Program-made: the position numbers and the translations under genes
In this document: positions 1 through 34,389 of the stretch, in pieces
How positions within the stretch are numbered: position 1 is the first letter of the stretch
How the letters are laid out: each line of letters starts with the position of its first letter
Assembly: GCA_028715175.1 (NCBI GenBank)
Contig: JAQUSJ010000001.1
Location: forward strand, 546,386 to 610,385
Source of the DNA: Candidatus Daviesbacteria bacterium
Lineage (GTDB): Bacteria > Patescibacteriota > Microgenomatia > Daviesbacterales > UBA10151
Direction: 5' to 3'
Length of the DNA stretch: 64,000 nt
The notes under the pieces: generated by a model
Seen by the model: the letters and a program-made list of their open reading frames with translations, nothing else
Database searches by the model: none
What the model was told of the DNA's origin: nothing

Positions 1-224
1 CTTAACCCTGCTTTTGTTATCGTGCTGAGATTTTGGCGGAGCATATTTGCCACATAATTTGCGAACTGAACATCTCCAGCATAACCCAATGCAATATTAT
101 CCTTGATTGGAAGAATCTTTTGAAGTTTATCTTCAACAACTCCCGGAGCTGATGCACGGCTGTCAGAAAGCATTACAGCCTCTTTATCTGCTTTAAATCC
201 AACAACAACTGTCATAATTGACAT
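1..224 (-). CDS. Partial (C-terminus beyond window start) proteasome/HslV-type Ntn-hydrolase peptidase
   Basis: Minus-strand translation from ATG at 222-224 gives MSIMTVVVGFKADKEAVMLSDSRASAPGVVEDKLQKILPIKDNIALGYAGDVQFANYV... The T-V-V-VGxK ... D-R ... GxxxD pattern resembles N-terminal-Thr hydrolases (HslV / 20S beta). It is absent from the ORF table because it has no stop in the window. Confidence 0.4.
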   Translation of the reverse strand, partial: MSIMTVVVGFKADKEAVMLSDSRASAPGVVEDKLQKILPIKDNIALGYAGDVQFANYVANMLRQNLSTITKAGL

Positions 225-363
225 TATACTCCTATAAGGTTCGATTCCGGTCACCGGTATAAAACTTTTGAGGCTAGAGAAAATCAGTTAAAAATTTAGG
301 CTCGGACTTGGGAAAATGTTGCTTTGAAGAGGAAAAATGTCAGTAGTTAAAAACAAGTCCGGT

Positions 364-379
364 TTGGAGCGGGTGAGGG
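364..379. repeat. 16-bp direct repeat (ttggagcgggtgaggg) identical to the 3' end of tRNA-Gly(UCC) at 10725..10740; putative attL of the integrated element
   Basis: Exact 16/16 match read directly from both loci. The distal copy is a displaced tRNA 3' fragment, typical of tRNA-targeted integration. Confidence 0.6.
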
Positions 380-516
380 TATTAGAGTCGGACTCCAAAA
401 CTTCTTTAATGATACCTCAGAGGAAGCTAAATTACTAGCTTTTCAGCTTCAACTTCTCAAGGATCATTTAGGAGGGAGTCTTCAGGTTTATTCTAGCTAA
501 CTGCTATAATTCCAAT

Positions 517-1302
517 ATGCATAGTTTACCTGTTTATACTGCGAATAAAAGGAAAGGGAATATAGGTGAAGCATTAGCCCAATACATTTTTTCTAAGTTT
601 TGCTTAGTTCACAAAATTGATGGAAGTAATGATCTTGGAAATGATTTTATCTGTGAGTTAATAAGAGATCAACATCCCACTAATCTATTGTTTTATGTAC
701 AAGTGAAATACACAAATAATCCGCCCAGGATAAAGGAAGAAACAAAGGAATATTGGAAAAGTTCACCAATTCCTGTCTATATTTTTTGGATAAAAGATAA
801 AAAACCACCCGTGATTTTTGATCCTGATCTTTTTAGAAAAGCTAAAACTTACTATAAAAGGTTAACTCCATTACTTCATAATGAAAGCAAACATAAAAAC
901 GAAAAGTTCAAACCTTACAAAGAAATTGATTTTAAAAGAGACCTGATAGTAGATTATGTGAGAACACAATATAAAGAAGGATTTACTCCTATTATAGAAC
1001 CAAGGGCCTTTTTGAACATAGATGAAAAACTGCAAACAGACCTACCTCAGTATGCCTTCTATATTAGGGACGTCATACCTGAATATTCAGAGGATATTTT
1101 ATCTAAGGGTTGGGCTAATTTATTTTCTTTGGCAGTTATTTTATATAAAAAAGGAGACAGAGAGAATTTGGAGCTTGCTCACCACCTAATAGATTTGGCA
1201 ATTACTCTTTATAAAAAAGAAAGAGGAGAAGATGATTCTAGAATCTATAATTCTATGGTTGAATATGAAATAGATATTGCTGATCTACTAAACAGATCTT
1301 AA
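517..1302 (+). CDS. Hypothetical protein, possible PD-(D/E)xK / HamA(DUF4365)-like nuclease fold
   Basis: 261-aa ORF with N-terminal DLGNDFICEL...LFYVQVKYT, a D...E...(Q/E)xK-like arrangement. It is convergent with, and 14 nt from, the SF2 helicase gene. No other recognisable motif. Confidence 0.45.
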   Translation: MHSLPVYTANKRKGNIGEALAQYIFSKFCLVHKIDGSNDLGNDFICELIRDQHPTNLLFYVQVKYTNNPPRIKEETKEYWKSSPIPVYIFWIKDKKPPVIFDPDLFRKAKTYYKRLTPLLHNESKHKNEKFKPYKEIDFKRDLIVDYVRTQYKEGFTPIIEPRAFLNIDEKLQTDLPQYAFYIRDVIPEYSEDILSKGWANLFSLAVILYKKGDRENLELAHHLIDLAITLYKKERGEDDSRIYNSMVEYEIDIADLLNRS

Positions 1303-1316
1303 TTAGCATTAATTAT

Positions 1317-4300
1317 CTAAAGGCTTGAAACAACTCCCAAATTAACAGCATATGTTTCTTGTAAATATAATTCCGTTACAGCAAGCAGTGATAATTGGCT
1401 ATTTGTTGCCTTTGTTTTGGAAAGTCCAGGCTGGACAATAAACACTTTGAGCTCAGGAACTAAAAATGAGCTCTTGTTCTCTATTTCTTCAAGTTTTATC
1501 AAGTCTCCTTTTTCAAATCGGGATACTCCGTATTTATTGTTCCTACTTATTTCTCTTTTACGCATATGCTTCATAAGAACCTTAAAATCGCTTTTCCATA
1601 AAACGCTTTTTTGTGCCTGACCGCAGACAGCATAAAGGTCATCAATGCGTGCAGCTGCTCTCCCTTCTTTTGCGTATTTACAATGGTAGAAGTGGGCAAT
1701 TAAGCGGTTACCCAAAATTTTAAGTGCCACAATGTCAGCAGCTTCATAAGCGTCATCATCGTCAAAAATAATATCGTAGTTGTCAGCGTAACTCTTTTGT
1801 TGGATTTTTTTGAGCACATGATATTGAATTGACCGTTTGTTTCTCTGATAAGTTTGTGACTCTTCAGACAAATTAACACCTGTCCAATCCCACGTTTCAA
1901 TCCTGTTCCTATTAAAAGAGTCTTTCCCTGCATTTTTGACTGTGTATACCTCGTTATAGATGAGAAAAGTTCCATCTTCAAAACGTATTGTCGGAGGGGC
2001 TTTTTGCATCCAATCTGATAACAATTCTTTTTTGCCTCTTACTTGTATGGATACAACTTCTTTGCCGGTGGGTAAATAATCCACTTTTCCTTTGAGGATT
2101 TTAATCATGTATTCTACGCTTTTATTGTTTGTGAAAACCTTAAACTTTAGTGAACCCTGTTTATTATTGTCTGTAAGCTCTAATCCTACTTCATAAAAAG
2201 GTACGACATCTCCTGCAACATCAAATTTGATTACGTCTTCAGCTCTAAGGAAAATATCTTCAGACCATTCAATTGTCAGAGGAACTAAATTCGGTCTTGC
2301 TTGTATTTTCTTGGGGATTATGGCATTTTCAATAATCTGATCAACTTTTATCCTATTATTTAGCAGCTTGGAACCGATATGTTTGCACCATTCTATCCAT
2401 TCAGAGATGTTGTCCGCAACCATATGAGCCCATATTTTCCCTCTCCTTGAACATCCAATGCTTATTTTTTCTCCGTTTTCAAAACCGGTTCCGAAGGCGT
2501 TTACTTTGATTGTATTATTAACTTGTGCCTCTGGCATGCCTTCTCTAACATCTGAACCAACGCGCATTGTATAGCTTGTGGTCCGACTGAAGGCAGGTTT
2601 TAAACCAAGATTGATTAGTATTAGCCTGTTTATTGAAAACAGAGTACGGAATACTTGTTCCCCTTGGACAAGTGCTACATCTTCACCAACAACTGCTTTT
2701 GCCAAAGCTGCATGATAGGAACTTTTGTCAGAACTGTTTATATATAATAGTTGTTGTGTTGGATCCCAATAAAGTAGATATAAATCCCAAACTGTATTAT
2801 ACACACCCTTAGTGTCTGCCCATTCAACAAGTTCGCGGGTGGAAGTAATAAATAAAGCTACCTTGTTTTTATTGTTTATTGTTGGTTTAGCGTAAAGATC
2901 AGACTCCTTAATAAGGTCTTTTATTCTATCCGGCCTCCATCTTATACACTTGGTTTGGTATACAACAGTGCTCATTTTTGGCAAGATATTTTGTATTGGG
3001 ATTTCAGATGGCAAGTCGTCAAAGTCTTCTAAAAACTCTGCTGCCTTTTTTTGTTCTTCAGTAGCTCCTTCACTGAGGTTGTGCAGTATAGAGTTCCAAT
3101 CCGAACCGTCTGCATATAACTCCCGAAGTGCATCTGCAATCTCGGGGTTTGCGACATTTGCGATAATTGTTGCATCTCCAATATTTGGATTGGTTCTGGT
3201 AAAACGTCCTGTAAATTGAATAGTAATAGCCAAGCTTTTATGCGCATCATGCAAAGCGGCAATTTTTAATTCAGGAAAATCAAAGCCTTCTCCAAACATA
3301 TCAACACAAACTATAATTCTTGATTGTCTGGTTCTGAGCTTCTGGAGGGCAGCTGTACGCTCGGTTTTTGTTTGCCTGCTATTAACAACCACTGGTTCAT
3401 ATTTTCTTCCAAGTTGCTGATATATTTTTACAACGTTATTTGCTCGTTCAATGTTGTTTACCCTTGCCATTACTATATGGTCTAAACCTTTTTTTATGTC
3501 CTTTTTCAATTGGGCTATTGCCACTTTGGCAATCGGTTCATCCTGGTTTTCCGTGTTATATACTCTTAGTGAGACAAAATTAATGCGCTTAAAATAACCT
3601 TCATCTTGAGCCTTTTTCAAAGGGAAATCAAATATAATTTTTCCATCAACCTGACGACCATCATTCCGGTAAGGAGTAGCCGTAAATTGGAGAATTATCT
3701 TATCCGTAAAGTTTTTGCGGAACTTTTCCCAAGTAGGGGCTGTTATATGATGGGCTTCGTCAATAAAAAGGGAATGGCATAGATTTGCAACCTGTTTCTG
3801 CATATCTTCATCAAAACCATTTATAACCTGCATAGTTGCCACTATTACGTTGCAAGACTTAAAGAAATGTTCAACCTCAGAGACTGAGCGTAATTTGTGT
3901 TCAAGTATGCCTACCACAGGATATGCCGCTTCTTTACCAACAATCCCTAAACTTTTTAGCAAACCAAGATTTATGAATTTATTTGCTATCTGGGTACGCA
4001 AAGCATCATTCGGAACAACTACCAACAATCTTTCTATGCGTTGGTTGATCAAAAGAGCAAGCATGGTTTCCGTTTTACCTGTACCTGTTGGCATTACAAT
4101 AGTTGCAGGTTTAGTACGTGCCTTCCAGTAGCCTATGGTTGTATGAAGTGCACCACTTTGTGCAGATCTTAAACCTGGTTTATCAGGTTCTTTTTCTTCT
4201 TCAACAAAGAAAAACTGCCCCTTCCAGGATTTACGGACGCTGGTACAATAATCCTGCATAGCTACTTGATTAGTAAGCTCTATAGTGTTTGTTTTAGGTT

Positions 4301-4592
4301 TAAGCCACTGCATTTTTTCCCTCAATGTTAAGAATTGTTCTTCATTGGCTGGGATTGTCGCTTGGGGGGATAATAAAACATCATATTTCCCAGGAATTAT
4401 CTTTTTTGTGCGTAGAACTAAAACATCCTTTTCACCCTTTCGTTGTATAAGTTTTGCTCTAGTATGCCTTATACGCCCATTTGAAATATTAGCATTACAG
4501 ATGATTTCTGGCTGGCTAAGTTGTAGGATATTATTCTTAAATAGCTTTCCTTTAATTAAGTACCTACTGGGTAAGTAGACTGGAGTATCCAT
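1317..4592 (-). CDS. SF2 DEAH/ResIII-type helicase (1091 aa) with a ~600-aa uncharacterised C-terminal domain, possibly a nuclease
   Basis: Walker A VMPTGTGKTET, DEAH box LFIDEAHH, motif III QFTATP, motif VI QFTGRFTR. The C-terminus has an acidic patch DDDDAYEAADIVALK...HCKYAKEGRAAARIDD. Confidence 0.85.
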   Translation of the reverse strand: MDTPVYLPSRYLIKGKLFKNNILQLSQPEIICNANISNGRIRHTRAKLIQRKGEKDVLVLRTKKIIPGKYDVLLSPQATIPANEEQFLTLREKMQWLKPKTNTIELTNQVAMQDYCTSVRKSWKGQFFFVEEEKEPDKPGLRSAQSGALHTTIGYWKARTKPATIVMPTGTGKTETMLALLINQRIERLLVVVPNDALRTQIANKFINLGLLKSLGIVGKEAAYPVVGILEHKLRSVSEVEHFFKSCNVIVATMQVINGFDEDMQKQVANLCHSLFIDEAHHITAPTWEKFRKNFTDKIILQFTATPYRNDGRQVDGKIIFDFPLKKAQDEGYFKRINFVSLRVYNTENQDEPIAKVAIAQLKKDIKKGLDHIVMARVNNIERANNVVKIYQQLGRKYEPVVVNSRQTKTERTAALQKLRTRQSRIIVCVDMFGEGFDFPELKIAALHDAHKSLAITIQFTGRFTRTNPNIGDATIIANVANPEIADALRELYADGSDWNSILHNLSEGATEEQKKAAEFLEDFDDLPSEIPIQNILPKMSTVVYQTKCIRWRPDRIKDLIKESDLYAKPTINNKNKVALFITSTRELVEWADTKGVYNTVWDLYLLYWDPTQQLLYINSSDKSSYHAALAKAVVGEDVALVQGEQVFRTLFSINRLILINLGLKPAFSRTTSYTMRVGSDVREGMPEAQVNNTIKVNAFGTGFENGEKISIGCSRRGKIWAHMVADNISEWIEWCKHIGSKLLNNRIKVDQIIENAIIPKKIQARPNLVPLTIEWSEDIFLRAEDVIKFDVAGDVVPFYEVGLELTDNNKQGSLKFKVFTNNKSVEYMIKILKGKVDYLPTGKEVVSIQVRGKKELLSDWMQKAPPTIRFEDGTFLIYNEVYTVKNAGKDSFNRNRIETWDWTGVNLSEESQTYQRNKRSIQYHVLKKIQQKSYADNYDIIFDDDDAYEAADIVALKILGNRLIAHFYHCKYAKEGRAAARIDDLYAVCGQAQKSVLWKSDFKVLMKHMRKREISRNNKYGVSRFEKGDLIKLEEIENKSSFLVPELKVFIVQPGLSKTKATNSQLSLLAVTELYLQETYAVNLGVVSSL

Positions 4593-4831
4593 AATTTTTA
4601 ATCTTAATTTTCCAGCTCATTGTAACAGAACTTATGTAAGAACACGACAATAGTAAATTACTATTTGACATCAGAGGTTAGGCTGCTACACTTAAACTAT
4701 AACAATAATTATTAAGATTAGATTGATATGACAATGAAAACTATTAGTTTCCTACCATGTAATTCCTACGATAATCATCTTCTTAATTATCTGAATCTTT
4801 GCAAATTTATGAAAGGAAGGGGGTGAACCTC

Positions 4832-5197
4832 GTGATTGAGTTATATTTGTCAACTGATGGCAAACATACAATTCATCTCCAAACAGTAAGCCAGGAAGAA
4901 ATGGATAAGCTATTCCCTTATGCCAAGCAGTTATACCAAAAGATAGTTGATGAACTAGGGACAAAAGCCCAGATGTGGCATGACGCTATAAATAGCAACG
5001 GTAATGGAGTTAAAAAGAATGGTCTAGTTAAAGTTAACAATGCTCCTATGTGTTCTATCCATAAAACACATATGCAACTAAGAAGTGGTAAGTATGGGGA
5101 ATTTTGGAGCTGCGGGACAAAATTATTAAATGGGAGTTGGTGTAGGGAAACATCTAGTGAAATCAACTCAAATGCGCAGAAATCTCTAGCAATCTAG
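4832..5197 (+). CDS. Small zinc-ribbon protein with a topoisomerase-type C4 zinc finger
   Basis: C-terminal CSIHKTHMQLRSGKYGEFWSCGTKLLNGSWC matches the zf-C4_Topoisom pattern C..C...R.G.yG.FwgC..yP.C. The likely start is GTG at 4832, 7 nt after the RBS ggaaggggg; the table ORF begins at 4799. Confidence 0.5.
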   Translation: MIELYLSTDGKHTIHLQTVSQEEMDKLFPYAKQLYQKIVDELGTKAQMWHDAINSNGNGVKKNGLVKVNNAPMCSIHKTHMQLRSGKYGEFWSCGTKLLNGSWCRETSSEINSNAQKSLAI

Positions 5198-5246
5198 TGA
5201 TATCTGAGATAAATTTGCAAAATTTGCAGAAGCTGAAGGATGAATT

Positions 5247-5951
5247 ATGAAGCAACAAGTATTACTAAAGGTTCCTGTTGAAACAGAGGAGCAAAAGATA
5301 GCAAAATATCACGGATTTGAACTGAAAACAGCAAATGGCTACAAATTAGATGAAGTAGTAAGTGCATTACAGAAAGCCTGTAGACGCGGGGAAGAAGAAA
5401 GGGCCCTCTTTTGGGCATATGAGATGATCCATGGAGGGTATATAGCCTACTTTTGGAGAAGGATGGCTGTAATTGTGGTAGAGGACATAGGTTTAGCTAA
5501 TGTGGAGGCTGCAATTCTTATCAACTCCCTAGCCCAACTAAATGAAAGGGTTAACAGGAAGGACTATGTAGAAACTTTTCACCCGACAATGGCAGTTCTT
5601 TATCTTTGTAGAAGTAACAAATCACGAGAAATTGACTTCGCTAATGACTGGATTGATCGCAACAGAGAGCTTGGATGGAGGGAAAAGATAGAAATTCAAG
5701 ATTTGGACGAACACAATGACCAAGGGAGGCAAAGGATTAAAAAGATGGGAGGTAATTACCAGCGTAAAAAAGATGAGATATTCTATTATGAGTCAATCCT
5801 TCTTAATAATCCTGTTTCAATAGCTAAGGACAAATATAAAAAGCTCGTTTGGCAGTTAAGGAAACTAGATAAAAAGAAACTTAAACTAAAGTATGCACCT
5901 AAAAAGAAGCTAAAAGGATCTATGCGGAGTCAATACCGGACAGCACAGTAG
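5247..5951 (+). CDS. Standalone RarA/MgsA C-terminal-domain-like protein (AAA_assoc_2 + MgsA_C) without an ATPase domain
   Basis: VSALQKACRRGEEERALFWAYEMIHGGYIAYFWRRMAVIVVEDIGLANVEAAI...LYLCRSNKS parallels the RarA C-terminal pattern KSIRGSDPDAALYWLARML..G.DP.FIARRL.I.ASEDIGLADP...LAVAPKSN. The C-terminus is a Lys-rich tail. Confidence 0.5.
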   Translation: MKQQVLLKVPVETEEQKIAKYHGFELKTANGYKLDEVVSALQKACRRGEEERALFWAYEMIHGGYIAYFWRRMAVIVVEDIGLANVEAAILINSLAQLNERVNRKDYVETFHPTMAVLYLCRSNKSREIDFANDWIDRNRELGWREKIEIQDLDEHNDQGRQRIKKMGGNYQRKKDEIFYYESILLNNPVSIAKDKYKKLVWQLRKLDKKKLKLKYAPKKKLKGSMRSQYRTAQ

Positions 5952-6087
5952 GTAGTGATGGTCATTTTCTAGCTTCGGATTGAGGCTAAAGAACAGTGAA
6001 GAAAACTATGAAGATACAGTATAGAAAAGGTCACAGAGGGTATGAGGAGAAAGGATAAGTTTCAATTTACCCTTGCAGCATAGAGAT

Positions 6088-6297
6088 TTATGAAGAGAGG
6101 AGGTCAGAAGAAGTGTTACCAAATACTTTTGCGATTTTGTTTAATGTTTTAAGAGTAGGGTTTTTCCTTTTAGCATGCTCAATTTCTATTATTGTCTTTG
6201 GATCAACATCAGCCAGCTCTGCAAGTTTTTCTTGGGTTAAATCTTTATCTTTCCTTAACTTTCTGATTTTCTCACCTAATTTTCTTAAGCTCGCCAT
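6088..6297 (-). CDS. XRE-family helix-turn-helix transcriptional regulator
   Basis: LRKLRKDKDLTQEKLAELADVDPKTIIEIE... is a Cro/C1-type HTH; 69 aa. Confidence 0.7.
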   Translation of the reverse strand: MASLRKLGEKIRKLRKDKDLTQEKLAELADVDPKTIIEIEHAKRKNPTLKTLNKIAKVFGNTSSDLLSS

Positions 6298-6400
6298 TGA
6301 CAGAATTATGGAATATATGCCAGACTGTGAACAGGAAATATATTCCAGATTTACGCATGAAATTAAGGCTGAAAGACGACTTGCAGGATTGCAGTAAAAT

Positions 6401-6721
6401 ATGAGGCTAGCGAATACTAAAATAGTAATAGGCTTATTAGTTTTGATTGCTGTTTCGGTTGCCTACTTCTTTCTGATTTATCTTCCGAAACAACAAGAAT
6501 TTAGATTACGACAACAGGAAACTACTCTTAGAAAACAAACTTATGAACTCTGCTTGAAAGAATGGAATGGTATGTATGATAAGGCAGGAGAACTTTTTGT
6601 AAGGGAAAACCCAGAAATTACAAAACAGGAATTGGGAGACAAATTGATACCTATCATCAATAAGAAAGATGAGATTATAACAAATTGTGTTGAGAAAAGG
6701 CTTCAAGAATATAAAAAATAG
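6401..6721 (+). CDS. Hypothetical membrane-anchored protein
   Basis: N-terminal TM helix IVIGLLVLIAVSVAYFFLIYL; no known domain. Confidence 0.45.
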   Translation: MRLANTKIVIGLLVLIAVSVAYFFLIYLPKQQEFRLRQQETTLRKQTYELCLKEWNGMYDKAGELFVRENPEITKQELGDKLIPIINKKDEIITNCVEKRLQEYKK

Positions 6722-6732
6722 GAGGTGAAAAG

Positions 6733-6969
6733 ATGAAAAGAACTATAATTTGGGCTATTGTACTGGTTATTTTTATACTGATCCTGTTCCAACAGTTTTA
6801 CCGATATGGTGAGCTTTCAATCAAAGAGGCCGAAGTTGAAAAACAGCTTTGGAAGGAGCGTTCTAACTATTTCCAGCTGTTGGATAAATACTGTAAAGAC
6901 AAGGGTTTCCAGAGTGCTCAGACTAATAAGGATGGTGTAATAACCTGCATTCCTTTAGATGGAAAGTAA
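6733..6969 (+). CDS. Hypothetical small membrane protein
   Basis: N-terminal TM helix TIIWAIVLVIFILILF; the RBS ggaggtg lies upstream. Confidence 0.45.
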   Translation: MKRTIIWAIVLVIFILILFQQFYRYGELSIKEAEVEKQLWKERSNYFQLLDKYCKDKGFQSAQTNKDGVITCIPLDGK

Positions 6970-7564
6970 AATGAAGGCTAAAGTAAAGTATTTGATCTTA
7001 GCAATTGTGATGCTAATTATTGTTCTAACTGCTCAAAAGCTGTATTTAACCCCTTCTCCGCAGAAACCACCCAATCTACCACCTGAAGCAACAAAAGCCG
7101 TTCAGTTGGAGTTAGAGTACCCTTATGAAGTCAAAAATGTAGCGGATCAGGAGAAAGTAGCGGTTTTACAACTTGTTAGGACTTTTGAAACTTTACAATA
7201 TGAAAGAAAAGCAAAAGAAGTATTAGCCTTATTCACTCCCCCCTCTAACGACAACGAGAGAAATGATTTGGATTTTCTGGAGGGAAAAGACTTGAATTCA
7301 AGCCCAAGACTTTATGTTACAGCAGGATATCCATGGTCTCTAAATTGGTACATGGTAAGAAAGATAGAGAAACAAAATGATAAGTTGCAAATAACTTTGA
7401 AAGAATTAAGAACTTATTATGCTAATTCTGATGGTGATTATACTGGTGATAACCAAAACCTGATCCTTGTAATTATTGAAAGTAGTGGAAGCTATAAAAT
7501 TGATCAATATTTCCATGAAAAGCTCTCGCCAAATGTGAATCGTAAATATGAGGGATTTAATTGA
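6959..7564 (+). CDS. Hypothetical membrane-anchored protein
   Basis: N-terminal TM helix YLILAIVMLIIVLTA. It overlaps the previous gene by 11 nt, consistent with a translationally coupled operon. Confidence 0.5.
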   Translation: MESKMKAKVKYLILAIVMLIIVLTAQKLYLTPSPQKPPNLPPEATKAVQLELEYPYEVKNVADQEKVAVLQLVRTFETLQYERKAKEVLALFTPPSNDNERNDLDFLEGKDLNSSPRLYVTAGYPWSLNWYMVRKIEKQNDKLQITLKELRTYYANSDGDYTGDNQNLILVIIESSGSYKIDQYFHEKLSPNVNRKYEGFN

Positions 7565-7750
7565 CAATGTCTGTTATAGAACCTGCCACCCCGACACAGT
7601 AGCTGATTGTTCAGTAGATAGCAAGGTAAGTATTATCTCACTCTAAATGTGCTTCATTTTAAGCCATATTTCCAACTGCAAAACTTTGCATTTGGATTGA
7701 TACAACAATCTAAACCTTGACAAAGATGTAAAAATTTTGTACTGTCAATA

Positions 7751-8227
7751 TTGATGAATATAAGTATTAATATGTTGCCCATAAAAATTTTCACTTCCGA
7801 TAAAAGGAAATTTCAAGAAATATCTAAGATAGTTGATCACTCGGAATTTCAAGAAGAATTTTTGAGACTAGCAAAAAAGTGGCGAGGGAAAACCATAGAA
7901 AGTTTAGACGAGGATTACCAAAAAGATATACTCGGTTCACTTTCCAAACTGAAGTTGCCAAATTCCCTTTATGATCTTCTATCGGATTGTGTTATTTCTG
8001 GCATTCTTTGGAAAAATTATAACTTAAGTGGTACAGAGATTTTAGAAATTCTCTTGGTTCGTTCAAGAAAATCTAAGACTTTAACAGACTTTCCCAGAGA
8101 TAGAGATTGGTATTGGAGGCATAAGTTTGGTGAAGGATATGGTGCAATCGCAAAAAGGGATGATGTGGGAAAGCACATGGTATTGAATGCAATTAAACGC
8201 TACAAGACAATGACTGGTAACGGATAA
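7751..8227 (+). CDS. Hypothetical protein
   Basis: 158-aa ORF with no recognisable motif. Confidence 0.4.
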   Translation: MMNISINMLPIKIFTSDKRKFQEISKIVDHSEFQEEFLRLAKKWRGKTIESLDEDYQKDILGSLSKLKLPNSLYDLLSDCVISGILWKNYNLSGTEILEILLVRSRKSKTLTDFPRDRDWYWRHKFGEGYGAIAKRDDVGKHMVLNAIKRYKTMTGNG

Positions 8228-8298
8228 TTCCCTAATCTAATTACTCCCTAAAACTATTAAGCTTCTATAAACTCCAATTAAAACAAGTTCTGATTAGC

Positions 8299-8532
8299 AT
8301 GAAATCTAATACATTTGAATTAACTGATTTTGAGGTTGCCACGATCTTGATTATTGAAGGATTTAATCTTCTAGAAGTTGACAAGTCTAATCCTCACAAA
8401 GCCAGCTTTATATTTGAAAACAATCCCAGAATAGCCGAAGTCATCAATTCCTACTTTAATGATAAGTTATCTGTTAATCCACGCATGCTCTTCATGGAAA
8501 GTAAAACATTAAAAAACAGACTGTATTTGTAG
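8299..8532 (+). CDS. Hypothetical protein
   Basis: 77-aa ORF with no recognisable motif. Confidence 0.35.
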   Translation: MKSNTFELTDFEVATILIIEGFNLLEVDKSNPHKASFIFENNPRIAEVINSYFNDKLSVNPRMLFMESKTLKNRLYL

Positions 8533-8791
8533 ATTTTAAGAGTCTCTGCAGCGACAAGAAAGTCATAGATAGTCTTTCAGCATACCGTATGACTTAAAAC
8601 TGCGGTCTGGCCTAAAAGGTAACTTAGGGCTCTGGTGGGGAGCGTCGCTAGTACCAGTATCAGAAAGACTAGTTACCGCCGAAAGAGAAATCTTTTGAAA
8701 CGTTAGACCCTTCTTGTAGCGATACAAGCTAACAATGACGTTCCCTGATAACTAAATAATTTCTATTTAGGAGATCAGGGAGGGAAGGCAT

Positions 8792-8959
8792 ATGGGGATG
8801 AGGAAAAAAATTGAAAGTAAACAAGTTAACAAAGAAGATACTAGTTTAGTCAGGATAAATACTGGCTTAAAGGATTCGCTTAAAGAAAAGGCAGCAGCCA
8901 AAAAAACAACCATCAAAGCTCTAGTAGAGGGTGCAGTTGCAGAGATTGAAGGGATTTAA
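8792..8959 (+). CDS. Small ribbon-helix-helix (CopG/Arc-like) protein, 55 aa, below the ORF-table cut-off
   Basis: Hand-translated as MGMRKKIESKQVNKEDTSLVRINTGLKDSLKEKAAAKKTTIKALVEGAVAEIEGI. The N-terminal beta-strand (SLVRINT) plus a two-helix pattern fits an RHH fold. It is preceded by ggagatcagggaggg and sits immediately upstream of the recombinase module. Confidence 0.4.
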   Translation: MGMRKKIESKQVNKEDTSLVRINTGLKDSLKEKAAAKKTTIKALVEGAVAEIEGI

Positions 8960-8961
8960 GG

Positions 8962-9147
8962 TTGGTTATGTTGACTAAAGAGGAAGTTGCTGAATTTAGG
9001 AGGTTGGTTCTAGAAGTTTATGGGATTAAGCTAACAACTGGAGAAGCTACGGATCAAGGTTCACGTCTAATTCAATTATTTGAGCTCATCTTGAAAAATA
9101 AGAAGCTTGTAATGATGGATGGAAAGGTGGTACAAAGTAATGAGTAG
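8962..9147 (+). CDS. Hypothetical small protein (possible recombination directionality / accessory factor)
   Basis: 61-aa ORF directly upstream of, and overlapping, the serine recombinase start by 29 nt. Confidence 0.3.
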   Translation: MVMLTKEEVAEFRRLVLEVYGIKLTTGEATDQGSRLIQLFELILKNKKLVMMDGKVVQSNE

Positions 9148-10789
9148 CAATAATTTAAATGACAATGATATGGATAATCTAGCTTTGGCTTACTGCCGGA
9201 AGTCAGAAGAAGATAAAAAGAGACAGATACTATCCCTTGATGATCAAGTTGAAGAATGTAATAAGCTAGTTGACGATCACAGTCTCACTTTAGCAACTCC
9301 TCATTTTAAAGAAGAGAAATCAGCAAAAAAAGCAGGCATGAGAATTGAGTTTTACAGAATGCTTAGCCTGCTTAAAAGCGGTAAGGCTAAGGTAATAGTC
9401 TGCTGGAATGCTAACCGTCTAGCCAGAAATATGATAGATGGTAGTGAAATAATTGATTTAGTCCAGCATAAAGAGCTTAGGATTATTACACCATACACGC
9501 AGTATGATTACTCCAACTGGTTCATGCTTCTAATAGAATTCGGAATGTCTACAGACTTCAGCTTGAAGCTCTCTAAAGACGTCAAAAGGGGCTTAGAATC
9601 AAAAGTAGCTAAAGGAATAAGGCCAGGCTTAACGCCACTTGGATATTTGAATGTAGGAGAAATTAAGGGTGAAAAAAGTATTGAGGTAGACCCTCAGAGA
9701 TATGAATTATGTGCTAGATGGTGGGGAATGATGTTAACCGGTAAATATACTGTTGAGCAGTCTTTACAGGAAATAACAGTAATGGGTTTGCGGGATAGGA
9801 GAGGAGATAAAATCTCCAGAACTGCTGCTTTTAAAATTTTCCATAATATCTTTTATGCAGGGTACTTTAACTATTTAGGTCAAATCCATAAAGGAATCCA
9901 AAAGCCAATGATTACACTTGATGAGTTCAATAAGGTTCAGGACATCATTACTGGTAAATTTGGTGGTAGATATAAACATGAAACCGAAAGGAAATCTCTT
10001 CCTCTATCTGGATTTATAAAATGTTCTGAATGCGGAGCTACTATCACCTGTGAGCGAAAAACCAAGCATTACAAAAACGGTACAACCCAGGAATTTAGCT
10101 GGTACAGATGCAAGAAAAACAAAAATCACCCTTGTAGCCAACTGTATATGCCTTCAGAAGAGTTGGAAAAACAAGTAGGAGCGTATATAAACAATCTGGA
10201 ACTTGATCCAAGATTTATTGGTTGGGTTAAGACTGTTTTAAGAAGAAGGAATCAAGACGAGTTTGAATTTGACCGCAAACAAAGGGAATTACTGATGAAA
10301 AAACTTCAAGAGCTAAGCAGTAGGAAAGAGATAATCTTCGGGATGAAAATTGACGGACTTTACCAAGACGCAGAATACAAACAAAAAGTTGCAGAAGTTT
10401 TAAGGGAAGAAGCAGATATTAAGGAAAAACTCAATTCCAATAGAATATCTTATTGGGAAGGGGTTATTGACCAAACTTTAGATTTTGCTCAAACTGTATT
10501 TGAATTATTCAATAATAAAGATCCTTATGTCAAACGGTTAGTACTTCAAATTCTTGGGTCGGACCTAAAAATAAGGGACAAATATCTTTATCTTGAAGCT
10601 AAATCTGTATTTATCTTCTTAAGAAACAAACAAAACACCCTTTTTGAAAAACACGGAATAGTCGGACTCAAAGATGGGCTGCTACGACAACCTAAACAGG
10701 ATAATTATATCCTTCCAATTCCTCTTGGAGCGGGTGAGGGGAGTCGAACCCCTTACGTCCACTTTGGAAAAGTGGCATTCTACCGGTGA
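9119..10789 (+). CDS. Large serine recombinase (resolvase/invertase N-terminal domain + recombinase domain + zinc ribbon)
   Basis: N-terminal LAYCRKSEEDKKRQILSLDDQ...AKVIVCWNANRLARN resembles the catalytic-Ser resolvase domain. The C-terminal region has CSECGATITC...YRCKK zinc ribbon and coiled-coil. Its last ~21 codons read through the tRNA-Gly gene on the opposite strand. Confidence 0.85.
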   Translation: MERWYKVMSSNNLNDNDMDNLALAYCRKSEEDKKRQILSLDDQVEECNKLVDDHSLTLATPHFKEEKSAKKAGMRIEFYRMLSLLKSGKAKVIVCWNANRLARNMIDGSEIIDLVQHKELRIITPYTQYDYSNWFMLLIEFGMSTDFSLKLSKDVKRGLESKVAKGIRPGLTPLGYLNVGEIKGEKSIEVDPQRYELCARWWGMMLTGKYTVEQSLQEITVMGLRDRRGDKISRTAAFKIFHNIFYAGYFNYLGQIHKGIQKPMITLDEFNKVQDIITGKFGGRYKHETERKSLPLSGFIKCSECGATITCERKTKHYKNGTTQEFSWYRCKKNKNHPCSQLYMPSEELEKQVGAYINNLELDPRFIGWVKTVLRRRNQDEFEFDRKQRELLMKKLQELSSRKEIIFGMKIDGLYQDAEYKQKVAEVLREEADIKEKLNSNRISYWEGVIDQTLDFAQTVFELFNNKDPYVKRLVLQILGSDLKIRDKYLYLEAKSVFIFLRNKQNTLFEKHGIVGLKDGLLRQPKQDNYILPIPLGAGEGSRTPYVHFGKVAFYR

Positions 10790-10800
10790 ATTACACCCGC
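10726..10800 (-). tRNA. tRNA-Gly (anticodon UCC)
   Basis: Reverse complement GCGGGTG TA ATTC ACCGGTA GAAT G CCACT TTTCCAA AGTGG ACGTA AGGGG TTCGACT CCCCT CACCCGC T CCA. Clean cloverleaf; CCA encoded. Confidence 0.8.
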
Positions 10801-15261: not shown

Positions 15262-15335
15262 GGTCGGGGTGGAGAGAATTGAACTCTCTACATCTGCGTC
15301 CCAAACGCAGCGGTCTACCGATGACCTACACCCCG
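15262..15335 (-). tRNA. tRNA-Pro (anticodon UGG)
   Basis: Reverse complement CGGGGTG TA GGTC ATCGGTA GACC G CTGCG TTTGGGA CGCAG ATGTA GAGAG TTCAATT CTCTC CACCCCG A CC. Confidence 0.8.
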
Positions 15336-15422
15336 TGGTGCCCAGGGAGGGACTCGAACCCTCACGTCCTTGCGGACAACAGCTCTTAAGGCTGCACTGT
15401 CTACCAATTCCAGCACCTGGGC
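15336..15422 (-). tRNA. tRNA-Leu (anticodon UAA), long variable arm
   Basis: Reverse complement GCCCAGG TG CTGGAATTGGTAGACAG ... GCAGC CTTAAGA GCTGT TGTCCGCAAGGACGT GAGGG TTCGAGT CCCTC CCTGGGC A CCA. It abuts tRNA-Pro with 0-nt spacing. Confidence 0.8.
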
Positions 15423-30387: not shown

Positions 30388-30416
30388 ATCCGGCCGTTTA
30401 TCGGCCGGATTTTTTG
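30388..30416 (+). terminator. Rho-independent terminator (9-bp stem atccggccg / cggccggat, loop tttat, then T5)
   Basis: Read directly; it follows the DUF378 gene and its T-tract abuts the 3' end of the tRNA-Gly(GCC) gene on the opposite strand. Confidence 0.6.
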
Positions 30417-30489
30417 GAGCGGGAGACGGGATTCGCACCCGCGACCTCCTACTTGGCAAGCAGGCATTCTGCTACTGAACTACTCCCGC
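30415..30489 (-). tRNA. tRNA-Gly (anticodon GCC)
   Basis: Reverse complement GCGGGAG TA GTTC AGTAGCA GAAT G CCTGC TTGCCAA GTAGG AGGTC GCGGG TGCGAAT CCCGT CTCCCGC T CCA. The D-stem contains a G-T pair. Confidence 0.7.
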
Positions 30490-30511
30490 ACTTCATCCGC
30501 CTCTGGCGGAT

Positions 30512-30760
30512 TCAGTGTAAACTATCGACCAATTTCTGTTTTTTAACTCTAGACCAACCCTTAATCTCTTTTTCTCTCTTAGCTGCAAGATATCTGTCTT
30601 TAAACCTTTCCCAATAAACCAGCCTAACAGGTATCTTGCTTAGCTGTAAACAACTCTTAATTCTACTATTATGCTCCTTTATTCTTCTTTTAAGATCCCA
30701 CGTTATCCCCGTATACAAAGACTCATCTTTACATCTTAGTATGTATGTAAACCAAGCCAT
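30512..30760 (-). CDS. GIY-YIG nuclease-family small protein
   Basis: MAWFTYILRCKDESLYTGITWDLKRRIKEHN... is a GIY-YIG motif (YIL...LYTG). The table ORF begins upstream at 30865; the internal start at 30760 matches family length (~83 aa). Confidence 0.6.
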   Translation of the reverse strand: MAWFTYILRCKDESLYTGITWDLKRRIKEHNSRIKSCLQLSKIPVRLVYWERFKDRYLAAKREKEIKGWSRVKKQKLVDSLH

Positions 30761-30889
30761 AGAGCAGTTTACACAGAGCGAAGCGAAGTGTGCCTCGACC
30801 CAGAATCGGACTGAGATAATCCGCTCTTCAGGCGGACGCCTTGACCACGTTGGCAATCGAGGCAAACTTAAGAAGATTTTACCACATAA

Positions 30890-32674
30890 TTATTTAACTG
30901 TAACGCTTTTAGCTATGTTTCTGGGTTTGTCTACATTATGACCTAATTCCACAGCCATATAATAAGCCAGAAGCTGCAAGGGGATTATATTCATGATGGC
31001 AGAGGTTTCACCGGTATCCGGAACAGGAATATAGTGGTCAAAGACAGCACAGGCAGCGGGAGAAATGCCGATTACTGTTGCACCTCTTGCCTTAACCTGA
31101 TTGACTGCATTTATCACGTCATCCCTGGCCAAATCCTCCGATACCACCGCAATCACCGGCACGCCTTTTTCCATCAAGGTTATTGCATAGTGCTTTAAAT
31201 CTCCTGCGGGGATACCATGAGCATGTATGTATGATCCTTCTATTATTTTAACCATTCCTTCACTGATAATATTAAAATTTTGATATTTGCCCAGCAGAAA
31301 GATATCTTTATGTTTAGCTAAAATTTTTGCCAGATTCTTAATCGTTTCGTGGTTTGCATTTGTATTCAAGTATTTATCCATCTCCTCAACTAACTTTTTT
31401 AAGTTAACCCTTCCTTCTTTGCTTTTTCCGCTTGCCACTTTTGCTATCAGATATCCCCAGGCAATTTGTGAGGTAAAAACTTTAGTGGACATCACACAAA
31501 TCTCCGGTCCTGCGTGCGCAGAATACGGGTGATCGGAAATACGCGCCATAGTAGAACCCGGCATATTAACATACGAAGCAATCTTAACACCTTTCTTTTT
31601 GGCAATTTCTAAAACTTCCAAAACATCTGCTGTTTCACCGGATTGTGAAGGAGCAATTATCAAGTCATCCTTGGTTAATAAATCATAGTAGTCATACATA
31701 TCAGCGCCTATGACGCTTCTTGCGTTAACTTGAGCAAATACCCGAAGGTAAAAAGCGACCTCCGATGCGGCGATGCCGGCTGTACCAGACCCGATTGTGT
31801 AGACATTTTTGGCTTCTTTTAATGTTTTGATGAAATCCTCGTATAACTTAAAGTCTTGATTTAAAACCTGACTGACAACATAAGGGCTCTCATGAATTTC
31901 CTTAAGCATGAAATGATCATAACCTTCTTTATCAACTTTGCTGTTTTTAAAATCAATCTTCTCTAAATGATAAGGCAAATCTTTGTTGGACTTGATATCC
32001 CTAAGTTGCAGCTTGCCATTCCAGGTTATCATCTGCCCGTTTTCTACAACTAGTATTCTGTTTACATAAGGAGCAAACGATAGCGTGTCGGAAGAGAAAA
32101 ATATCTCTTCACCATTAACTCCCACCACCAAAGGGGAACCGTTTCGGCAAGCTATAATCCGGCCCGCTTTTGTCACAAGAATAATGGTATTTCGTCCCTC
32201 CAATTCTAAAAACGCCAGCCTCACCGCTTCCTTTAAATCTACTTTCCCACTCGTCAAGTGGGAAGCTGTTTTTAATTTATCTTCTATTAGTCGAACAATC
32301 ACTTCTGTGTCTGTTTCTGTTTGAAATTTATAGCCTTTTTTTTGCAAAGCAGATTTCAACTTCTGATAATTTTCCACAATGCCGTTTTGCGCAAGGACAA
32401 AAGATTTGTCTGAAGAAAAATGCGGATGGGCGTTTGTGACATTTACCCCACCATGGGTAGCCCAGCGGGTATGACCAATCCCTGCATTGGATCTCGGCAG
32501 ATTAATGAGTTGGTTCAAGTCGCCAATCGCTCCAACTTTTTTGTCAATCTTGATCTGGTCTGCCACCACTGCAATACCCCAGGAATCGTAACCCCGATAT
32601 TCCAGCCTTTTTAAACCTTCCAGAATAACTTCAGAAGCATTTTTTGATCCAATATAGCCAAATATTCCACACAT
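30890..32674 (-). CDS. glmS: Glutamine--fructose-6-phosphate aminotransferase
   Basis: N-terminal MCGIFGYIG (Cys1 nucleophile), two SIS domains, 594 aa. It contains a family-2 palindromic insert encoding ASHLTSGK. Confidence 0.9.
   Translation of the reverse strand: MCGIFGYIGSKNASEVILEGLKRLEYRGYDSWGIAVVADQIKIDKKVGAIGDLNQLINLPRSNAGIGHTRWATHGGVNVTNAHPHFSSDKSFVLAQNGIVENYQKLKSALQKKGYKFQTETDTEVIVRLIEDKLKTASHLTSGKVDLKEAVRLAFLELEGRNTIILVTKAGRIIACRNGSPLVVGVNGEEIFFSSDTLSFAPYVNRILVVENGQMITWNGKLQLRDIKSNKDLPYHLEKIDFKNSKVDKEGYDHFMLKEIHESPYVVSQVLNQDFKLYEDFIKTLKEAKNVYTIGSGTAGIAASEVAFYLRVFAQVNARSVIGADMYDYYDLLTKDDLIIAPSQSGETADVLEVLEIAKKKGVKIASYVNMPGSTMARISDHPYSAHAGPEICVMSTKVFTSQIAWGYLIAKVASGKSKEGRVNLKKLVEEMDKYLNTNANHETIKNLAKILAKHKDIFLLGKYQNFNIISEGMVKIIEGSYIHAHGIPAGDLKHYAITLMEKGVPVIAVVSEDLARDDVINAVNQVKARGATVIGISPAACAVFDHYIPVPDTGETSAIMNIIPLQLLAYYMAVELGHNVDKPRNIAKSVTVK
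32244..32267. repeat. Family-2 in-frame palindromic element (TTCCCACT-cgtca-AGTGGGAA-gct) inside glmS
   Basis: 8-bp stem / 5-nt loop; encodes ASHLTSGK on the minus strand, at a site where GlmS homologs are about 5 residues shorter. Confidence 0.8.
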
Positions 32675-32702
32675 GTTATTCAGGGATTATATCATGTACA
32701 CC

Positions 32703-32735
32703 TACAAGTGGGTGCTGAGGGATTTGAACCCCCGA
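32703..32735 (-). other. Orphan tRNA 3' fragment (T-arm + acceptor 3' strand: GTCGGGGGTTCAAATCCCTCAGCACCCA) with no 5' half
   Basis: The reverse complement shows a GGGGG-TTCAAAT-CCCTC T-arm and a 7-nt acceptor strand. tRNA-Val begins 7 nt away, so no room exists for a 5' half. Confidence 0.45.
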
Positions 32736-32742
32736 CATCTTC

Positions 32743-32819
32743 TGGTGGACAAGACAGGACTCGAACCTGTGACCTCCTCAGTGTAAATGAGGCGCTCTAA
32801 CCAACTGAGCTACTTGTCC
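32743..32819 (-). tRNA. tRNA-Val (anticodon UAC)
   Basis: Reverse complement GGACAAG TAGCTCAGTTGGTTAGAGC GCCTC ATTTACA CTGAGG AGGTC ACAGG TTCGAGT CCTGT CTTGTCC A CCA. Confidence 0.8.
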
Positions 32820-32891
32820 AAATCAGCGCTCTTCCCGGTGTGTCAATCTATCCCACCCCTGGTGTGTGTTAGCTTCACACCGTAGGGTATG

Positions 32892-32974
32892 TGCCGGGAA
32901 GAGGAGTTGAACCTCCACGCCCTTACGGGCACTACCACCTCAAGGTAGCGTGTATACCATTTCACCATCCCGGC
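32892..32974 (-). tRNA. tRNA-Leu (anticodon GAG), long variable arm
   Basis: Reverse complement GCCGGGA ... CTACC TTGAGGT GGTAG T GCCCGTAAGGGCGT GGAGG TTCAACT CCTCT TCCCGGC A. Confidence 0.7.
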
Positions 32975-33052
32975 TTGCTTAGAGTATCTGATAATTTTAT
33001 CAGTTTAATGCAGGCATATCAATCTGAAACAGAGGATTAGTAACTCTTTTTC

Positions 33053-34279: not shown

Positions 34280-34305
34280 CTATGGGGCATTGCGCTTTTG
34301 AGTAG

Positions 34306-34389
34306 TGCCCCAAGGGAGATTCGAACTCCCACGCCATTTCTGGCACTGACTTCTGAGGCCAGCCTGTCTACCAATTCCAGCATCGGGGC
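34306..34389 (-). tRNA. tRNA-Leu (anticodon CAG), long variable arm
   Basis: Reverse complement GCCCCGA TG CTGGAATTGGTAGACAG GCTGG CCTCAGAA? parsed as stem CTGGC / loop CTCAGAA / GTCAG, variable arm TGCCAGAAATGGCGT, T-arm GGGAG TTCGAAT CTCCC, acceptor TTGGGGC A. Confidence 0.75.

Follow-up and report, generated by a model that had tools for sequence, protein, structure and literature searches.

A putative mobile island at a tRNA-Gly gene of Candidatus Daviesbacteria, with the attachment site inside the gene of its large serine recombinase

How can a serine recombinase place a mobile element at the end of a tRNA gene and leave the tRNA intact? Characterised serine integrases insert into protein-coding genes, which they typically disrupt (PMC8092301), and according to the literature no case with a tRNA gene as the target is known (PMC4383910, PMC7192596). 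The question is raised by a stretch of 64,000 nucleotides from Candidatus Daviesbacteria bacterium (NCBI GenBank assembly GCA_028715175.1, contig JAQUSJ010000001.1, positions 546,386–610,385 of the forward strand). We call this stretch the window, and all positions refer to it unless another contig is named. Its positions 364..10740 are very probably an integrated mobile island of about 10.36 kb, element A, placed by a large serine recombinase (LSR) which has the attachment site of the element (attP) inside its own gene. A preliminary description, made from the letters of the window, had proposed an integrative element of about 10.4 kb at tRNA-Gly(UCC), moved by the adjacent LSR. This proposal is supported by a break of synteny and by the empty site of a sister genome, L017. 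None of the observations that it had named as arguments against itself (a native copy of the repeat without an element, a recombinase belonging to another unit, conserved core genes in the interior) was made.

The target is tRNA-Gly(tcc), which ARAGORN places at 10726..10800 on the minus strand. The gene is intact and its CCA is encoded (TTG on the plus strand). The 16-mer TTGGAGCGGGTGAGGG is found exactly at 364..379 and 10725..10740, as had been noted before; in the right copy the 3' terminus of tRNA-Gly(UCC), encoded CCA included, is read in antisense. A single near match exists elsewhere, with 2 mismatches: at 30414 the sequence coincides with the 3' terminus of the tRNA-Gly(gcc) gene. Only 0.01 occurrences are expected by chance, and none of 100 shuffles reached three. 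Islander-type elements are bounded by a tRNA gene and, on the opposite side, by a displaced fragment of it; here this is the 16-bp 3' fragment at 364..379. The element is also poorer in GC than its flanks: 0.360, versus 0.396 ± 0.010 (minimum 0.380) in equal-sized windows of the remaining sequence, which places it 3.6 standard deviations below. Classical islands of this kind carry a tyrosine-family integrase, but no match to Phage_integrase is present among the open reading frames (ORFs) of the element: the sole recombinase on board is of the serine type.

The LSR in its integrated form has 556 amino acids (aa) and is encoded at 9119..10789 on the plus strand, abutting the tRNA gene. Its ORF runs on through the right junction (attR) into the antisense tRNA and ends with LGAGEG-SRTPYVHFGKVAFYR and a stop codon, so that its last 15 residues are SRTPYVHFGKVAFYR; this crossing of attR was absent from the preliminary description. 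At the other end of the element, in 363..500 on the plus strand, we have found the 3' end of the recombinase gene as a separate piece. Its reading frame agrees with that of the core of the left junction (attL); it encodes FGAGEG-IRVGLQNFFNDTSEEAKLLAFQLQLLKDHLGGSLQVYSS followed by a stop codon, and matches a hidden Markov model of the tail with E=4.5e-24. When 9119..10740 is joined to the sequence from 380 onwards, as in an excised circle, a single ORF of 580 aa is obtained, which ends with LGAGEG-IRVGLQNFFNDTSEEAKLLAFQLQLLKDHLGGSLQVYSS and a stop codon. The exchanged segment comprises residues 542–580: 39 codons located at 380..500, across the element from the body of the gene. According to this reconstruction, the LSR loses its last 39 residues upon integration, and 15 residues translated from the antisense strand of the tRNA gene take their place. 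The tail contains a conserved amphipathic helix, SEEAKLLAFQLQLLKDHL.

The undivided form of the gene is found in relatives. Three contigs without tRNA, L002 (P0031), L003 (P0036) and L044, have the body and a homologous tail in a single ORF; L044 came from a metagenome scan, the other two from a homolog look-up. The homologous tails follow the pattern E.(K/R)(L/I)LA.QL(Q/E).L, where dots stand for any residue. The tail profile also detects detached tails, in frame, on the same strand and at the far end of the element, in the integrated loci L004, L014/L022, L053 and L023. In L004 the LSR has 88% identity with that of the window and the element about 7.4 kb; L014/L022 is Daviesbacteria GW2011_GWA1_41_61, with an element of about 10.6 kb; the element of L053 has about 10.7 kb. 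In 28 tail codons, the pairs formed by the window, L004 and L014 have synonymous-only versus nonsynonymous differences of 6/4, 6/7 and 9/6, the synonymous ones including GGT/GGG and AGA/CGA. The helical tail was seen only in the branch of LSRs with at least about 39% identity to that of the window. From these sequence comparisons we conclude that the tail is translated with the rest of the enzyme and kept by selection; if so, the elements must spend evolutionarily relevant time excised.

A search for the tail peptide in a set of 5.8 billion proteins gave only four small ORFs, including those of contigs L099 and L100. In these two contigs (L099 296..547, L100 700..906) the last 25–45 LSR codons are followed by the core and the full tail, which amounts to an intact attP, but the body of the LSR is missing upstream. 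Such contigs could represent non-autonomous elements, reduced to attP, which use an LSR in trans, or else junctions of tandem insertions. Just upstream of its attP fragment L099 has repeated TTGTGG/CCACAA motifs.

The identification of the 556-aa protein as an LSR, already proposed, is confirmed by its domains and catalytic residues. It matches Resolvase PF00239 (E=4e-18) and Zn_ribbon_recom PF13408 (E=6e-10). The match to Recombinase PF07508 (E=1e-3, 19.6 bits) is slightly below the cut-off of 21.1; this domain is annotated in many homologs. Residues Y25, R27, K28, S29, R75, R100 and R103, which comprise the Y-x-R-K-S motif and further arginines, are invariant among 26 LSR homologs. The nearest solved structure is the SPbeta integrase, with its catalytic domain only (E=1e-13). 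The homologs carry the name 'recombinase family protein [Candidatus Daviesbacteria]'; the exact 556-aa sequence gave no record on look-up, and no LSR with more than 24% identity was found in the annotated phage and plasmid collections. In an AlphaFold2 (AF2) model of the 580-aa form, the catalytic and recombinase domains, the zinc ribbon, the coiled coil and a small C-terminal sub-domain are folded up to about residue 512; the helices in 366–464 come after the zinc-ribbon strands in 300–331. Residues 513–552, where the codons of the att core are found, are predicted to be disordered, and the tail helix, with low confidence, to occupy 553–575. By its sequence, attP is located inside the LSR gene, in the part that codes for this predicted linker, with some 40 codons left to the stop.

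The two junctions define the site in detail. The core of attL (364..379, plus strand) consists of TTG, GAGC (367..370) and GGGTGAGGG, which mimics the acceptor stem; the core of attR (10725..10740, plus strand) has GAGC at 10728..10731. To the right of attL, after the 5-bp spacer TATTA (380..384), there is a T-arm-like motif of P type, GAGTCGGAC (385..393, plus strand). In attR the T-arm motif of B type, GAGTCGAAC (10741..10749, plus strand), directly follows the 9-nt acceptor segment. The preliminary description was right in taking the repeat as the signature of att sites, but 16 bp is not the norm of this system, since relatives share 4–7 bp. The identity of attL and attR is 16 bp in the window, the longest seen, 7 bp in L004 (TTGGAGC), 4 bp in L014 (GAGC) and 7 bp in L053 (GTGCCGA). 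The shared minimum across loci is a sequence of 4 bp, GAGC/GTGC, which corresponds to tRNA positions 74–71, around the discriminator. To judge from these alignments, the crossover must be inside GAGC/GTGC. Because the crossover would be placed at its extreme 3' end, the tRNA stays intact without a long duplicated fragment.

The arms have a simple structure. Those of the tRNA consist of the core, 9 nt of acceptor strand and the T-arm sequence GRNTYGRAC; those of attP consist of the core, 9 nt, a 5-nt spacer and the same kind of 9-mer (GRGTCGRAC-like). In the right arms, a T-loop-like hexamer TYGRAY is found at +12 in all six tRNA arms and at +17 in all eight attP arms. In the LI/A118 integrase, the motif of the zinc-ribbon domain occupies half-site positions 16–24 in attP and 11–19 in attB (PMC3783163). 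These positions are reproduced exactly here if the C of GAGC is taken as position 1; the GC of GAGC would then be the central dinucleotide, as the geometry of the LI integrase suggests. By analogy, we infer that the zinc-ribbon domain would bind the T-arm-like motif, 5 bp further out in attP.

What was at this place before the insertion? The sister genomes L015 (GCA_028712705.1, 92% protein identity) and L017 were found through relatives of the SIMPL gene. Their homology to the window (tRNA-Gly, SIMPL and DHODH genes, 83–87%) ends exactly at the 3' end of the tRNA, and no LSR is present there. In L017 the site is empty: the 3' end of the tRNA abuts the flank of a zf_Tbcl_2 gene, with the sequence atgtatacccaaaggtagaagtaaatatttgt-GAGC-gggtgagggg. 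An empty site of this kind had been anticipated with the tRNA next to an HslV-like gene; the empty site exists, but the neighbour is the zf_Tbcl_2 gene. The tRNA genes of L015 and L017 finish with CACCCGCTC, without CCA. At the corresponding places, 10726..10728 in the window, 10867 in L015 and 10028 in L017, the sister genes end in GCTC. The TTG which codes for the CCA of the window tRNA thus appears, from the comparison of sequences, to have been supplied by the left arm of attP (P-left arm): TTG is the end of every P-left arm examined.

A Logan contig, L101, is identical to the window in 1..10777 and extends its left flank by 4.3 kb. The zf_Tbcl_2 flank recurs in L101 1566..1607, followed by GAGC and then by unrelated DNA; identity to the empty site of L017 stops exactly behind GAGC, in agreement with a crossover in these 4 bp. 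The comparison of flanks thus gives 13.4 kb extra in the genome of the window: element A and a block of 3.07 kb (L101 1608..4671, whose right end is window 1..363), which is absent from L017. This block has a T5orf172/MUG113 + HNH-repeat gene and a gene for a 568-aa proteasome-domain protein (L101 2817..4523), with an N-terminal Proteasome domain and a weak C-terminal DUF6941; this combination is an unusual fusion. The window has the 5' part of the latter gene at 1..224 on the minus strand (ORF fragment 3..224, Proteasome E=3e-9); the block to which it belongs is a remnant which we call island B. Neither L017 nor L015 has the gene at the corresponding place. It is the HslV-like gene that had been taken as housekeeping context; since its block is absent from L017, it is part of an older insertion instead. 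No LSR remnant is found in the 3.07-kb block, and its old junction (L101 ~1604, 1604..1640) has a weak similarity to P-type arms (z = 1.3–3.7). Judged by these alignments, element A is located in an insertion hotspot, with an older 3.07-kb insertion between it and the ancestral flank.

In L015 the gap between the tRNA and the zf_Tbcl_2 gene (L015 10868..13304) contains a different insert of 2.4 kb, whose genes are an orphan and one for a nucleotidyltransferase (Adenyl_transf/LinB-like). In addition, 16 bp of the 3' end of tRNA-Gly (GAGCGGGTGAGGGGAG) recur 108 bp downstream of the tRNA. The repeat and the insert suggest that this hotspot bears a scar and has received cargo of a second kind. L017 is the only sister genome with a GIY-YIG ORF between the SIMPL and tRNA-Gly genes (L017 9682..9951), possibly a homing-endonuclease insertion. 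A contig with the SIMPL gene, L001, was considered as evidence of excision and discarded as uninformative: it breaks off within the tRNA. L001 and L101 come from the same run, SRR22315506, and have exactly 30 nt in common, all inside the tRNA (window 10748..10777). The break between them is probably a break in the assembly graph, caused by a co-occurring relative with a slightly different T-loop in its tRNA.

Related loci were collected from viral, genome and metagenome scans and from look-ups; a scan of genome contigs with a narrow alignment gave only three of them. The LSRs surveyed go down to about 30% identity with that of the window. In 50 of the 71 related loci in which the end of the ORF could be judged, the LSR ORF enters an antisense tRNA called by ARAGORN; these are loci and not independent events, since some of them are near-duplicates. 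Fifteen isoacceptors are involved. The targets are His, Gly (three anticodons), Ala, Leu (five), Thr (two), Asp, Glu, Lys and Tyr. The other 21 loci include the three attP forms L002, L003 and L044, and several further ones, which end in peptides that we read as tRNA-derived. A single peptide pattern gave at least 502 relatives in JGI metagenomes. The recognition of the T-arm, if inferred correctly by analogy, would explain the spread of the clade over 15 isoacceptors in the sampled loci. In one relative, L009, an LSR with 44% identity has inserted a prophage (IMG/VR UViG_3300001594_001562) at tRNA-Gly(gcc) and lies at its end; since this prophage has terminase genes, the clade is used by prophages as well as by small islands. 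The flanks surveyed were 10 kb long and so do not reach attL in prophages of 30–60 kb.

Some of these loci have peculiarities of their own. In a distant branch (about 32% identity) most LSR ORFs end with WGG and a stop codon, three codons into tRNA-His. In L060 (9772..10306), which has no tRNA, the LSR ORF runs about 170 residues further, including a stretch similar to a helix-turn-helix (HTH); possibly this LSR is not integrated and its exchangeable C-terminal domain is far larger. The window itself has tRNA-Pro(tgg) and tRNA-Leu(taa) abutting with no spacer at 15262..15422, while the 10.7-kb element of L053 is located exactly between these two tRNAs. By its gene order the junction in the window looks like an unoccupied target; blastn detected no flank homology between L053 and this site. 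The tRNA order Gly(gcc)-Phe-Val-Leu-Leu in 30415..34389 is the same as in L009 11547..12244, and the copy in the window is unoccupied. A blastn comparison of L009 with this tRNA cluster gave tRNA-length matches only, so that the parallel is one of gene order.

Other explanations of the locus have to be weighed. As the 16-mer is short, one might think of a repeat that arose by chance or is native and has nothing to do with recombination; this is ruled out by the match statistics, by the coincidence of the repeat with the synteny break and with the 3' end of the LSR gene, by the conserved tail module and by the comparison with L017. The mobile unit might be larger, the whole block of about 13.4 kb absent from L017 (L101 1608..15033) having moved as one: one has to go as far as L101 ~1604 to meet the ancestral flank again, and there too the shared sequence ends with GAGC. 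We consider this very unlikely. A complete attL module (core, P-type arm and tail) is found at 364..500, and in relatives such a module always comes directly after the host flank; the weak P-arm similarity at L101 1604..1640 is what is expected of an older, decayed junction, and L015 has another insert of 2.4 kb in the same gap. The element could also be a fixed, immobile relic, whose repeat records an old insertion. No excision product of this element has been seen, its cargo matches include neither phage structural nor conjugation genes, and the neighbouring 3-kb insertion has evidently decayed. Yet the LSR ORF is intact with its catalytic residues conserved, the two 16-bp cores do not differ, the detached tail is unbroken, keeps its frame and appears to be under purifying selection, and other genomes have LSRs with 88–89% identity at this tRNA, that of L004 with different cargo. 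A relic is thus unlikely, although it deserves more credit than a 13.4-kb unit.

A different objection concerns the tail: the continuation of the ORF could be incidental, the conservation of the tail being a constraint on the DNA of the attP arm, and the functional protein could end near the core. The first 30 bp or so past the core are indeed expected to be a protein-binding arm, AF2 has low confidence in the tail, and every folded domain is retained in the integrated form. Against this, the best-conserved part (EEAKLLAFQLQLL) is 45–90 bp from the core, past a typical half-site of 25 bp; the frame is open through the tail in all of at least ten examples, with a stop soon after; the differences between tails are rich in synonymous changes; and the peptide motif persists at 46–50% LSR identity in spite of diverged DNA. 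We find little probability in this explanation and retain an island with a divided, translated LSR gene.

Several points weigh against this reading of element A. Neither an excised circle nor an empty site of exactly this element has been seen; the evidence for the attP form comes from relatives whose LSRs have 46–50% identity and from the fragments L099 and L100, of a group with about 70%. No closed circle was recovered, as the contigs L002–L004 were negative in a test of terminal overlap. The tail helix has a pLDDT below 50 in AF2 and no docking site, and being of low confidence and undocked it gives no structural support for a regulatory contact. A central GC would be palindromic, which is atypical for LSRs, and we therefore also keep AG or GA as candidate dinucleotides. 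The dyad symmetry of the att sites is weak at best: a scan finds its best centre at G/C of GAGC in two loci, L004 (13/24) and L014 (11/24), and elsewhere in the window and the others. Unusually for an LSR site, the left half of attB consists of flank that is not conserved. Finally, attL of the window has TTG to the left of GAGC, while the sister genomes have no TTG: this requires an extra assumption, namely that an earlier element at the site left it.

How would such an island be inserted? Following the general model of LSRs, dimers of the enzyme would bind attP, within their own gene, and the end of the tRNA; the zinc-ribbon domain would read the T-arm-like motif at its two spacings, and strand exchange at the discriminator would insert the circle and leave the body of the tRNA untouched. 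Loss of the tail helix upon integration might then change the activity, directionality or stability of the enzyme, and the swap of its C-terminus might let it report whether the element is episomal or integrated, possibly together with a 61-aa partner. As a tentative proposal, less probable than the island itself, the exchange of the tail could be a state switch between the 580-aa and 556-aa forms, in a clade which reads the T-arm and acceptor end and has ready-made landing sites in tRNA genes. These sites would be ready-made and highly conserved because the enzyme would read the universal T-arm and acceptor end. If this is true, the physical state of the element sets the preference for integration or excision, with or without the partner, and it is a natural counterpart of the engineered fusions of an integrase with its recombination directionality factor.

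The 61-aa partner is encoded at 8962..9147 on the plus strand and overlaps the start of the LSR gene, a position conserved in relatives. It has homologs at the same position in L004 (78%), L019, L012, L013, L014, L053, L044 and L003 (50%). Across the family it is the sole other gene conserved beside the recombinase, and it had been pointed out in the preliminary description. The protein belongs to no Pfam family; a single-sequence AF2 model (pLDDT 68) has two helices and a hairpin. Its sequence and position make it a candidate accessory or directionality factor. Before it there is a 55-aa ORF (8792..8959, plus strand), which had been described as a small ribbon-helix-helix (RHH) protein. It matches phrog_582 only weakly (E=0.003), is at most weakly Arc/RHH-like, and has no match at the other loci of related elements.

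The rest of the element is cargo, which varies: related elements have just the integrase module and the left-end tail in common. Next to the detached tail we have found a gene not reported before, which codes for a 261-aa DUF4365 protein, restriction-endonuclease-like (517..1302, plus strand; PF14280, E=2e-8), with a partial PADLOC match to the N-terminal region of an Argonaute-associated restriction endonuclease (E=2e-6). It is convergent with a gene for a superfamily 2 (SF2) helicase of 1091 aa (1317..4592, minus strand), in which Pfam places ResIII and Helicase_C in residues ~130–490. This protein matches phrog_16 DNA helicase (E=3e-44) and, in the PDB, XPB, RadD and 7clg 'putative helicase'; its PADLOC matches (PbeA, type IV restriction endonuclease, Cas3) cover the helicase region alone. 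No nuclease domain was found in it, and its 600 C-terminal aa have no family assignment. The DUF4365 and helicase genes (517..4592) are neighbours with no complete match to a known system and could be an undescribed two-gene system.

The following genes are smaller. A cysteine-rich, zinc-ribbon-like protein of 132 aa (4799..5197, plus strand), recognized by the cysteine pattern of its translation, has no match in Pfam, PADLOC or PHROG. It is followed by a 234-aa protein which consists of MgsA_C only (5247..5951, plus strand; PF12002 E=2e-10, phrog_33349 E=2e-16) and by an XRE-family HTH regulator of 69 aa (6088..6297, minus strand; HTH_3 E=9e-14), with homologs of about 42% identity in L014, L023 and L004. 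Three small orphan ORFs of 106, 78 and 201 aa (6401..7564, plus strand) have hydrophobic N-termini in their translations and no family match in Pfam, PADLOC or PHROGs. In 7751..8532 on the plus strand there are an orphan ORF of 158 aa and a DUF5659 protein (8299..8532; PF18903 E=2e-15), the latter missing from the preliminary description; it has homologs in L012 and L014. The earlier list of cargo genes was thus largely correct: the helicase, MgsA_C and XRE genes are there, but the helicase has no nuclease part. The cargo has no virion genes (head, tail or terminase PHROGs). No relaxase or type IV secretion system gene was matched by Pfam among the ORFs tested, several of which are orphan, and oriT was not searched for. 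The cargo had also been called defense-like. Partial matches to helicase domains and restriction-endonuclease-like regions agree with this, but PADLOC found no complete known anti-phage system, and for this reason a defense role of these sequences is only suggestive.

Together with dozens of related loci from the candidate phyla radiation (CPR), the locus in the window shows a clade of serine integrases which both targets tRNA genes and carries the att site in its own gene. In the literature searched we have found no description of tRNA-targeting LSRs with an attP which spans the ORF; its coverage is incomplete and an earlier description is possible. Serine integrases are prized tools of genome engineering and the control of their directionality is the main question that they raise. 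This clade offers a natural experiment on whether the C-terminus of an integrase can encode where it is. It also gives a picture, at the sequence level, of an LSR which uses a tRNA without damage, by a crossover at the discriminator and recognition of the T-arm with the 5-bp rule. Furthermore it provides a rule to delimit islands and prophages in CPR genomes: an LSR ORF which enters an antisense tRNA, with a detached tail upstream.

The enzyme has the same parts as those of phiC31, Bxb1, A118/LI and SPbeta SprA: a resolvase domain, a recombinase domain and a zinc ribbon with a long coiled-coil insertion. Like other LSRs of phages and of integrative and conjugative elements, it has a very short attL/attR identity (4–7 bp in the relatives), a motif 5 bp nearer to the centre in attB than in attP (PMC3783163) and a small adjacent gene, here a candidate directionality factor. 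It differs from the characterised LSRs in its target, the 3' end of a tRNA, and in an attP placed inside the integrase ORF. It also stands apart from known LSRs in its sequence: the identity to those of annotated collections is at most 24%, and the catalytic domain alone matches a solved structure. Among serine-family recombinases there is also the phiRSM type, which reportedly uses the 3' end of tRNA-Ser; to our knowledge no attP spanning an ORF occurs in it. Its enzyme is small and resolvase-like, without recombinase, zinc-ribbon or coiled-coil domains; like the LSRs it integrates and excises (cited in PMC7192596).

An att site in its own gene has precedents in other families. In the integrases of SSV type the recombination site is inside the integrase ORF and tRNAs are the targets, as here; such self-disrupting recombinases have been called exclusive to archaea (PMC8371274). 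Those are tyrosine integrases, divided into two large and presumably inactive parts, whereas in element A a tail of 39 residues is exchanged and the folded domains stay together; it differs from the suicidal SSV-type integrases because no folded domain is split off. In the integration-dependent immunity of mycobacteriophages attP is in the repressor gene and integration alters the C-terminus (PMC8092301). There too a protein differs in its C-terminus between the episomal and integrated states, but the gene crossed is a repressor, the integrase is of the tyrosine family and an ssrA-like degradation tag is lost. Here the extreme C-termini are not conserved and an internal amphipathic helix is. 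Phage Mx8 is the bacterial, tyrosine-family exception to the archaeal pattern: attP is in the 3' part of int, and integration at a tRNA gene gives a new 3' end and an altered C-terminus of IntP (PMC6070905; Tojo 1996, cited in PMC4383910). Element A has likewise attP within the 3' part of the integrase gene, acquires a new C-terminus and keeps an active-looking enzyme; the difference is that Mx8 IntP is a tyrosine recombinase of one phage, with another chemistry and another logic of its att sites, while here we have a serine recombinase across a large clade. By analogy, the arrangement would work like that of Mx8 IntP, with another family of recombinases.

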